Source of the DNA: Escherichia coli
Lineage (GTDB): Bacteria > Pseudomonadota > Gammaproteobacteria > Enterobacterales > Enterobacteriaceae
Direction: 5' to 3' (one strand)
DNA: 64,000 bases
Assembly (NCBI RefSeq): GCF_003790525.1
Contig: NZ_CP033635.1
Part shown: positions 49,395-51,639 of the stretch, one piece after another
How positions within the stretch are numbered: the stretch's first letter is position 1
Layout of the letters: every line of letters begins with the position of its first letter
Notes under the pieces: generated by a model
Told to the model about the DNA's origin: nothing
The model's database searches: none
Seen by the model: the letters and a program-made list of their open reading frames with translations, nothing else
Made by a program: the position numbers and the translations under genes

Positions 49395-50084
49395 TTACGA
49401 GGCGATCGCTGCGATAAAGCGTGTCGTTATCTGCTGCGGACGAGTGATTGCCCCCCCAACCACCACGGTATGAGCGCCTAATGTCAGGCAACGTGCGGCG
49501 CACTCCGGGGTGTCGACATTCCCTTCCGCCACGACCGGAACGCTGACCGCTTTCAGGACCTCACGTAAGAATCCACAGTCATTTTCCGCCAGCACATGCC
49601 TGGCAGTTTCTGCGGTATAGCCGTAGAGCGTAGTGCCCACACAGTCAAAACCCAGACGTTCAGCTGTCACTGCCTCTTCTACTGTTGCTATATCTGCCAT
49701 CAGAAGTATGGACGGGTAGCGAGCGCGGATCTGCGTGACCAGTTCTTCCAGCGTCTGACCACCAGGGCGCGGGCGCGCAGTAGCATCCAGGGCAATAATT
49801 TCCGGCTCAACGGTCATCAGCTCATCCACTTCCCGGAGAGTGGCCGTGATAAACACCTCACTGCCAGGGTAATCGCGTTTGATAATCCCTATCATCGGAA
49901 GGGAGACAATCTCTTTGATAGCACTAATATCCGCCACGCTGTTGGCACGGATACCTGCAGCACCACCTTGTGCTGCCGCCAGCGCCATACGTGACATAAT
50001 AAACGGACTATGTAGAGGCTCATTTTCCAGAGCCTGACAGGAGACGATTAATTTACCTTTCAGGGAATCCAGTACAGTTTTCAT
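49395..50084 (-). CDS. nanE: N-acetylmannosamine-6-phosphate 2-epimerase
   Basis: 229 aa, TIM-barrel epimerase family; coupled to the upstream PTS gene. Confidence 0.8.
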
Positions 50085-51639
50085 TACGATAAAATCTCTT
50101 CGACTTCGTTTTTAATGATGGTGACATGAGGGCCATAAATCACCTGAACGCCGTTGCCGCGAATAATCACGCCACGCGCTCCGGCCACTTTCAGCGCAGC
50201 TTCATCTACCTTACTGCTCTCTTTAACCGTCACGCGCAGGCGCGTGGCGCAACAGTCCACCTCTTCCAGATTCTCTTTGCCTCCCAGCCCGGCAATGACT
50301 GCCGCTGCGCGTTCACTCTGAGGCTGGCCGGATTCAACCCGGGTTACGTTCTCACGCCCCGGCGTCAGCCAGCCAAAGCGGTTAATCAAATAGCGGAAAG
50401 TAAAGTAGTAAAGGAAGAACCACGGTATTCCCACTATGGGGACATACATCCAGTTTGTTTTAGCTTCCCCCTGCAACACGCCGAAGAGAAGGAAATCGAT
50501 AAGCCCGCCCGAAAAGGTTTGCCCAATAGTGATATGTAAAATATGGGCGACCATAAACGCCAGACCATCGAAGAAGGCGTGAATTACGTATAATACGGGC
50601 GCGACAAACAGGAAGGAGAACTCAACAGGCTCAGTGATTCCCGTCAGGAAAGAGGTCAGGGCTGCTGACAAAAGTAGTCCGGCGACAACCTTTCTATTCT
50701 CCGGCTTTGCAGTATGGTACATTGCCAGACATGCGCCAAGCAGGCCAAACATCATGGTGATAAAGCGCCCGGACATAAAGCGAGCGGTACCCGCGTAGAA
50801 CTGCTGCGTATTCGGATCGGCAAGTTGGGCAAAGAAAATCCGCTGCGTACCTTCAACCAACTGGCCGTTGACGATTTCACTGCCGCCCAGCGCCGTCGTC
50901 CAGAACGGCAAATAAAAGATATGGTGTAAACCCAGTGGACCAAGCATACGCAGGATGAAGCCGTACAACAGCGTCCCCAGATAGCCCGTCGCATCCACCA
51001 GGTCGCCCAGTCCAAAAATGAGTTTCTGGAAATGCGGCCACACCACCGTCATAACCGCACCCACTACTATCGCGGCAAGGGAGCTGATAATGGGTACAAA
51101 ACGAGAACCACTAAAAAAACCGAGAAACTGAGGTAGTGAGACTTTATTGAAACGGCTATGTAAAGTGCAGGTGACGAGACCAATCACCACCCCACCAAAC
51201 ACACCAGTTTCCAGTGTCTGAATACCAAGCGTCATCCCCTGGCCAACTGAAGCGGGGTTCTTGTGCGCCAGCGTTCCGTTGAGCGTTAATAAGGCGTTGA
51301 TGGTGGCATTCATCACCAGAAACGCCAGCAATGACGCAAGCCCGGCAGTGCCTTTATCCGATTTCGCAGCCCCACGGCGACGCCGACTGCAAAGAGTACC
51401 GACAGGTTGGCAAACACAATAGAACCTGCGCTGGTCATGATTGTGAATATTGCCTGCAACCAGTCGGCATCTAAAAACGGATAAGCCGTCAACGTGTTTG
51501 GATTTGACAACGCGCCACCAATCCCTAATAACAGCCCTGCTGCGGGCAATACCGCAATCGGCAGCATGAAGGATTTTCCGAACCGCTGCGCTTTTTCAAA
51601 CCATCCCCCCGATGAAGCGCCGCTAAACATTTGCATCAT
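50084..51639 (-). pseudogene. PTS glucose-family EIICB component, frameshifted
   Basis: N-terminal 108-aa ORF (51313..51639) and 415-aa ORF (50084..51331) in different frames overlapping by 19 nt; EIIB motif CCATRLRV at the C-terminus. Confidence 0.7.

Follow-up and report, generated by a model that had tools for sequence, protein, structure and literature searches.

In the window, as we call the whole 64,000-nt stretch of Escherichia coli DNA analyzed here (contig NZ_CP033635.1, assembly GCF_003790525.1), a phosphotransferase system (PTS) permease gene of the EIICB type is spread over two reading frames. A sequence-only reading had described it as a frameshifted EIICB gene upstream of nanE and had offered three explanations: a genuine pseudogene in a decaying metabolic islet, a programmed frameshift or a sequencing error. 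We asked which of these accounts for the two frames. The description as such was borne out by the ORF list, by Pfam and NCBIfam profile searches and by orthologue alignment. Two minus-strand ORFs were listed, one of 108 codons opening with ATG and one of 415 codons opening with TTG, the latter lying in the -1 frame relative to the former. Since both match the same families, they are to be read as one split gene. The Pfam profile PTS_EIIC (PF02378) was matched at positions 1-73 by the 108-aa piece (56 bits) and at positions 83-319 by the 415-aa piece (224 bits), the two matches making up one domain with about nine profile positions lost at the lesion, and the 415-aa piece also contained PTS_EIIB (PF00367, 56 bits). 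Likewise, NCBIfam TIGR02002 was matched at positions 5-84 by the first piece (93 bits) and at positions 95-500 by the second (471 bits). Neither piece reaches any NCBIfam whole-protein cut-off (591.8 bits for TIGR02002), and even when the scores of the pieces are summed they stay below the equivalog cut-offs of TIGR02002 and NF008301. Judged by these family matches, both ORFs are pieces of one glucose-family PTS EIICB gene and not a chance pair of ORFs.

The closest characterized relatives of the permease are E. coli PtsG (IICB-Glc; PDB 8QSR, 9HNP, 9SRX), MalX and the PTS Glc family at large (TC 4.A.1), which share its EIIC-EIIB layout without an EIIA domain. The product of the repaired frame reached 363 bits against the E. 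coli PtsG structures, the alignment covering residues 14-516. Two motifs in the 415-aa piece, GITEPVEF of EIIC and DCCATRLR of EIIB, which carries the phosphorylatable Cys, aligned with PtsG, the GITEP-EF and EIIB Cys motifs being common to both proteins. No EIIA domain was found by NCBIfam and Pfam profile searches in the EIICB gene or its neighbours; going by its family, an EIICB without its own EIIA should rely on Crr (EIIA-Glc) acting in trans. In RefSeq, the intact gene is entered as a 1,557-nt CDS for a "maltose/glucose-specific PTS transporter subunit IIC". Compared to PtsG and MalX, however, the window EIICB is a distinct paralogue, with a NanE-type epimerase as its operon partner, and it is best classed as an accessory E. 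coli PTS permease.

Comparison with orthologues, one check that the sequence-only reading had asked for, returned intact single ORFs and located the lesion to the base. The gene measures 1556 nt in the window and is split into the 108-aa and 415-aa ORFs, whereas the intact orthologue measures 1557 nt and encodes 518 aa (WP_000983423.1). Alignments to the strains GF4, EC6563 and ApSLC23, and to two otherwise identical contigs described below, all contain a single 1-nt gap. One G has been lost from a GG pair at gene nt 273/274, at the junction of CTG and GCG (Leu91/Ala92), so that GGGCTGGCGAAA on the gene strand of an intact locus such as GF4 reads GGGCTGCGAAA in the window; on the plus strand, TTTCGCCAGCC becomes TTTCGCAGCC, and the surviving G corresponds to window position 51367. 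Against GF4, the EIICB gene shows exactly two differences, the 1-nt gap at nt 273 and an A-to-G change at nt 1301 (Q434R). The closest alleles are 99.9% identical, with Q434R as the only amino-acid difference besides the frameshift. The sequence-only reading had proposed to inspect about 51310..51335; the alignment places the lesion some 35-55 nt upstream of that region in the gene direction. As a result of the 1-nt deletion, no single uninterrupted permease ORF was found in the window: the 108-codon product consists of native residues 1-91 followed by 17 aberrant residues (RNRIKALPGLRHCWRFW), codon 109 is a stop, and the 415-aa ORF corresponds to residues 104-518 of the intact protein. The ORF is disrupted relative to intact, conserved orthologues, as expected of a pseudogene. 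The second frame is open from 51595 onward, both frames being open together over 283 nt (51313..51595). While the two ORFs and their 19-nt overlap (51313..51331) are present as first described, the overlap is without biological meaning because the ORF lister begins the second ORF at the first TTG. A compensating second indel was rejected, as the alignments show one gap only, and so was phase variation, the lesion lying in a mere GG with no repeat tract. The features of the locus are collected in Table 1.

Table 1. Coordinates of the EIICB gene fragments, the lesion and the neighbouring features in the window.
Feature	Position	Strand	Details and evidence
nanE-like gene, intact, 229 aa	49395..50084	-	NF002231, PF04131, NanE structures
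EIICB 3' fragment	50084..51331	-	residues 104-518; rest of EIIC and EIIB; ATG at 51313 overlaps the upstream stop (TGATG, 51315..51311)
EIICB 5' fragment	51313..51639	-	codons 1-91 native (TM1-TM2 region of EIIC), 17 codons out of frame, TGA 51315..51313
Lesion	51366..51367	-	one G of GG at nt 273/274 missing; alignments
Divergent intergenic region, 165 nt	51640..51804		AT-rich; GGAG 8 nt upstream of the EIICB ATG
MurR/RpiR-family regulator, intact, divergent	51805..52629	+	HTH_6 PF01418 (68 bits) and SIS PF01380 (69 bits)

The intact form of the gene is widespread. Carriers make up about 460-480 of 5426 complete E. coli genomes (about 9%; the source assembly is not among the 5426) and include ST131 as well as many avian and extraintestinal strains. 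The segment spanning regulator, EIICB and nanE was found in 482 records at 95-99.9% identity, the best matches covering 3,236 nt as compared to 3,235 nt in the window. In a sample of 60 matches spread over the whole ranking of 472 genomes, 58 were full-length, and all 58, including those of ST131 and SE15, spanned exactly 1557 nt. When a 141-nt stretch across the lesion was used as a megablast query, 460 genomes matched, and the best match reached 99.3% with one gap, so that none of the matched E. coli genomes shares the deletion. Beyond the species, orthologues are single ORFs of 517-520 aa in Citrobacter, Raoultella, Salmonella, Cronobacter, Pantoea, Serratia, Selenomonas and Peribacillus, with identities of 96% in Citrobacter and about 75% in Selenomonas and Peribacillus; the segment struck by the lesion, AK(S/T)DKGTAGLAxLLAFLV, is highly conserved in the alignment. 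As far as these sequence comparisons go, the intact allele is maintained across E. coli.

Two contigs, from independent assemblies, place the deletion on the tree. The repaired protein, including the Q434R allele of the window, is on record on a 10,142-nt contig (L006, GCA_034460245.1) and on a 7,405-nt contig of the Logan assembly SRR25608274 (L007), the latter seen in 7 samples. Aligned to window positions 48510..58650 and 48479..55882, respectively, L006 and L007 show zero differences from the window except for the one-base gap. L006 ends at the insertion sequences of the window, IS1414 on one side and an IS3-family element on the other, and L007 extends 29 nt into the IS1414 end with the sequence of the window, a stretch in which strains without the insertion differ. 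Given this common IS1414 junction, both contigs are, by sequence, of the same lineage as the window, with the same IS insertion and an intact EIICB gene, which puts the deletion at the very tip of the tree. The nanE-like gene, the regulator and the flanks are base-identical to relatives with an intact transporter, and EIICB is full length in all sampled carriers; the idea of a metabolic islet in decay is not supported as a trend by these data. No further degenerative changes, be it stops, indels or excess substitutions, were found over 10.1 kb in comparison with the intact relatives, and from the zero other differences over this distance it follows that the lesion, if real, is very young. The deletion itself was met nowhere else: no second isolate or assembly carrying it was found in the genomes, metagenomes and loci searched, a 25-mer spanning it (TATCCGATTTCGCAGCCCCACGGCG) was absent from all 26 fetched loci, and an exact-product look-up found no record of the predicted truncated products (the 108-aa protein and the 409-, 410- and 415-aa versions of the 3' part).

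This privacy cuts both ways, and the explanation that competes most seriously with a mutation is a sequencing or assembly error, in which the strain would really carry CTGGCG and an intact 518-aa EIICB, one G having been dropped from the consensus. The deletion is unique to the window sequence and absent from about 470 E. coli carriers, and one base is all that sets the window apart from the same-lineage assemblies over 10.1 kb and 7.4 kb. An isolated consensus error would look like this as well, a singleton difference unaccompanied by any substitution in 10 kb. In addition, a deletion-bearing 38-mer gave 0 exact matches in GTDB species-representative genomes and JGI metagenomes, and the surroundings of the lesion are rich in G and C (GTGGGGCTGGCG), a possible source of compression in Sanger data.

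Elsewhere the window is very accurate, and this argues against an error of this kind. For about 44 kb of its sequence, we drew on relatives that are at least 99.9% identical. At least 8 genomes matched the 7,694 nt of the core genes ahr-idnKDOTR-yjgR (21217..28910) at 100.0% identity, with 0 indels, and the contig L006 matched over 10,141 nt with 0 mismatches. Two further loci were 100% identical over 5,664 nt (L016) and aligned over 9,033 nt with 1 mismatch and 0 gaps (L018), and the set was completed by L023 (17 kb) and L026 (9.5 kb). Over the 5.7, 9.0 and 17 kb compared with near-identical loci, with discordances checked against a third locus, there were 0 unsupported indels. Six homopolymer discordances separated the window from L023, and at 6/6 the window version was present in other independent loci, so the errors belong to L023. 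All 207 homopolymer runs of at least 5 in the compared sequence are consistent with the relatives. The EIICB lesion, for its part, sits in a mere GG pair, which is neither a long homopolymer nor part of a Dcm (CCWGG) or Dam (GATC) motif. With all long homopolymers right and the GG outside Dam and Dcm sites, loss of the base through assembly error is unlikely, although we still grant this explanation a substantial minority share. The EIICB deletion is the only indel of the window that lacks support from another locus in about 44 kb, and this tilts the choice between pseudogene and sequencing error, left undecided by the sequence-only reading, toward a real and very recent mutation. We infer that the lesion is present in the cell, and consider it probable, from the sequence comparisons, that it represents a non-programmed, lineage-private and very recent loss-of-function mutation, that is, a nascent pseudogene.

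A real deletion might still leave some function, either through background -1 slippage or through reinitiation at TGATG, and even taken together we regard these two routes as very unlikely to matter. The 0 frame contains an A_AAG tetramer 13 nt past the lesion (51354), a sequence prone to slippage in E. coli; were tRNA-Lys to slip there by -1, the native frame would resume exactly at Lys96. The predicted slip product would have 518 aa and be changed only at A92R/K93N/S94R/D95I. Alternatively, the 0-frame TGA overlaps an in-frame ATG, which would allow for a split transporter of 108 aa and 409 aa, and split PtsG permease variants are reported to retain activity. Set against this, the slip product alters Asp95, which is invariant in the aligned orthologues, and a reinitiated transporter would lack residues 92-109, which belong to a conserved membrane segment. 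Any slippage should moreover be at background level only, because the zone from the lesion to the stop, in which the frame is restorable by a -1 shift, contains no X XXY YYZ heptamer, no Shine-Dalgarno-like element was found at stimulatory distance, and no significant structure follows. The rescue zone holds chance tetramers only (A_AAT, A_AAG, G_GGC and T_TTC), and the sole heptamer in the 5' end of the gene, G_GGG_GGA at 51610, precedes the opening of the -1 frame (51595). To count as a stimulator, an RNA structure had to lie 5-9 nt past the slip site. For the 66 nt that follow A_AAG, the MFE is -18.8 kcal/mol (z = -1.33), a value equalled or bettered by 22 of 200 shuffles, and the single hairpin begins about 28 nt beyond A_AAG. 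Both routes would be inefficient, and neither shows a sign of selection, since it was by accident, through a private deletion, that this arrangement arose. That the deletion is real and a working transporter is nevertheless made, as slip product or two-piece permease, which would render the allele hypomorphic and not null, has a slightly smaller chance still.

A programmed, that is evolved, -1 ribosomal frameshift or other recoding event regulating EIICB synthesis has the bare fact of two overlapping frames as its sole point in favour, and with the gene being a single ORF in about 470 E. coli and in other genera, the deletion private, the split conserved in no orthologue examined and absent from base-identical sister assemblies, and neither slippery heptamer nor stimulatory structure at hand, we reject it as extremely improbable. 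Genuine cases such as dnaX and the IS1 and IS3 transposases likewise have two overlapping frames that can be joined by a -1 shift, but the EIICB gene lacks the conserved slippery heptamer, the stimulator and the conserved split. Transcriptional slippage was also rejected, since the first 330 nt contain no run exceeding 6 and the rescue zone has no long stretch of A or T. As a separate observation, IS1 and IS3 transposases annotated 'programmed frameshift' occur nearby within related loci.

Returning to the nascent pseudogene as the preferred reading, we considered what the intact locus would do. The nanE-like product scored 316 bits against NF002231 (cut-off 189) and 234 bits against PF04131. 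Against solved NanE structures it reached 250-267 bits, the best being S. aureus NanE (1Y0E/6VVA, 267 bits), and it is nearer to this Firmicute NanE (1Y0E) than to Salmonella NanE (133 bits). The EIICB ORF ends one base inside the start of the nanE-like gene, and since the stop and the ATG overlap in TAATG, translation of the nanE-like gene is probably coupled to that of EIICB. The divergent gene is annotated as MurR/RpiR family transcriptional regulator in GF4, EC6563 and ApSLC23, and by family and position is presumed to be the sugar-phosphate-sensing regulator of the EIICB-nanE operon; the spacer between them presumably holds the promoters and operator. As read from gene order and family assignment, EIICB and the nanE-like gene are a two-gene operon under this divergent regulator. 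The same islet, comprising regulator, EIICB, nanE-like gene, mliC and a phytase-like gene, surrounds the WP_000983423.1 orthologue in GF4, EC6563, ST131 and SE15.

The simplest reading of the intact locus is an amino-sugar module. In this scheme, a sugar would be taken up and phosphorylated by EIICB, and ManNAc-6-P would be epimerised to GlcNAc-6-P by the NanE-type enzyme, feeding NagA/NagB. A parallel exists in S. pneumoniae, where SP1684, a Glc-family EIIBC without EIIA, adjoins the NanE SP1685 and is controlled by an RpiR-type regulator, following the same module logic (PMC3302838). The pneumococcal pair, however, sits in a sialic-acid regulon, whereas the E. coli module is isolated, its neighbours including no sialic-acid lyase, kinase or ABC transporter. 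NanR, an RpiR-type phospho-sugar-binding regulator, binds ManNAc-6-P (PMC12713135). The substrate may be an amino sugar such as ManNAc or GlcN, but given that the pneumococcal SP1684 permease mutant has a glucosamine and not a ManNAc phenotype (PMC3302838), the substrate of the E. coli permease is uncertain. A literature search found no experimental characterization of the E. coli EIICB-nanE islet; a paper on strain BEN2908 was considered as a prior description and rejected, as it concerns a different PTS region.

With the lesion in place, the ribosome would leave the native frame after Leu91, read 17 wrong codons and stop at codon 109. The predicted product is an 11-kDa fragment from which most of EIIC, the sugar-binding motif GITEPVEF included, and the whole of EIIB with the Cys of DCCATRLR are missing. 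The transporter would thus be non-functional, and expression of the nanE-like gene would be lowered through lost coupling, polarity and 1.2 kb of untranslated message. If this is true, an accessory amino-sugar PTS uptake system has only just disappeared from the strain, and probably also much of its nanE-like expression. For annotation, the locus is best recorded as a pseudogene frameshifted at 51366/51367, and neither as two genes nor as a programmed frameshift. Beyond annotation the significance is small, as the frameshift is a commonplace one of a single base and the accessory gene that it hits is of a known kind.

Two further ORFs of the window came up in the look-ups. For a YadA-like ORF (45238..46425) the look-up found nothing, probably because its mechanical TTG start is not the called start. 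A truncated JetC-like product of 1361 aa is lineage-specific, its matches being on short draft contigs only.

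The two-gene islet encoding the accessory PTS protein EIICB and a NanE-like protein looks like an inter-phylum module. Against known structures, the NanE-like protein scored 250-267 bits with NanE of S. aureus, C. perfringens and Fusobacterium, as compared to ~133 bits with the Salmonella enzyme, and the EIICB protein shares ~75% identity with proteins from Selenomonas and Peribacillus. The EIICB gene further carries a missense change, Q434R (CAG -> CGG, window position ~50340, gene nt 1301), located in the EIIC-EIIB linker. This substitution is a lineage marker, being common to the window, assembly GCA_034460245.1 and the Logan contig of SRR25608274, and is absent from strain GF4.

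A useful contrast to the accuracy of the window is provided by L023 (GCA_027278105.1), a relative's locus that differs from it by six one-base homopolymer discordances (at 34494, 40752, 40838, 41680, 44910 and 45805). In five of these, L023 is one base short in a run of G, C or A, and at all six sites the window's version is present in other loci. L023 looks like a long-read assembly that keeps residual homopolymer errors.

Within the window, a CP4-57-like island directly adjoins yjgR, which in other strains is instead followed by lptG. A nearly identical island (99.9%) in L023 and in L026, a second relative's locus, adjoins an ABC-transporter/mechanosensitive-channel region. Given these different neighbours, the chromosomal position of the island differs from strain to strain. 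A copy of IS1414, an IS256-family element, lies between a sigma-like HTH gene and mliC. Whereas GF4, EC6563 and ApSLC23, all E. coli strains with an intact EIICB gene, lack IS1414 at this site, the same-lineage Logan contig has a junction identical to that of the window.

Coordinates of mobile and accessory features in the window
Feature	Position	Strand	Remark
Wadjet-like operon	523..8123		with BrxR/WYL regulator
Large ORF	601..4686		1361 aa, after the 488-aa and 298-aa ORFs
Operon ORF	4689..5585		298 aa
Operon ORF	5588..7054		488 aa
BrxR/WYL regulator	7230..8123
P4-like satellite	8595..21063		integrated at leuX
Primase	10180..12513
ogr/delta	15849..16349
psu	16423..16995
Cargo ORF	17369..19501		710 aa, between psu and int
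Integrase	19562..20827
leuX	20979..21063	minus	tRNA-Leu CAA
CP4-57-like island	28911..47252		DUF4942, CbtA/CbeA toxin-antitoxin, antirestriction protein, RadC, DUF932, GTPase, inovirus Gp2-like, YadA-like adhesin
Sigma-like HTH gene	46487..46942
IS1414	47253..48507
IS1414 transposase	47230..48435		401 aa
mliC	48552..48890
EIICB-nanE islet	49395..51639

For the cargo ORF of the P4-like satellite, zero Pfam matches are on record. At the equivalent position, E. coli M172-1 encodes a different protein, with a TIR domain, a difference typical of defence-gene hotspots. The Wadjet-like system at the start of the window is cut off near position 600: its large ORF spans 1361 aa, whereas in other strains it comprises 1478 aa, with a JetD_C gene coming next. 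Related draft contigs stop at window position 523, like an IS boundary.
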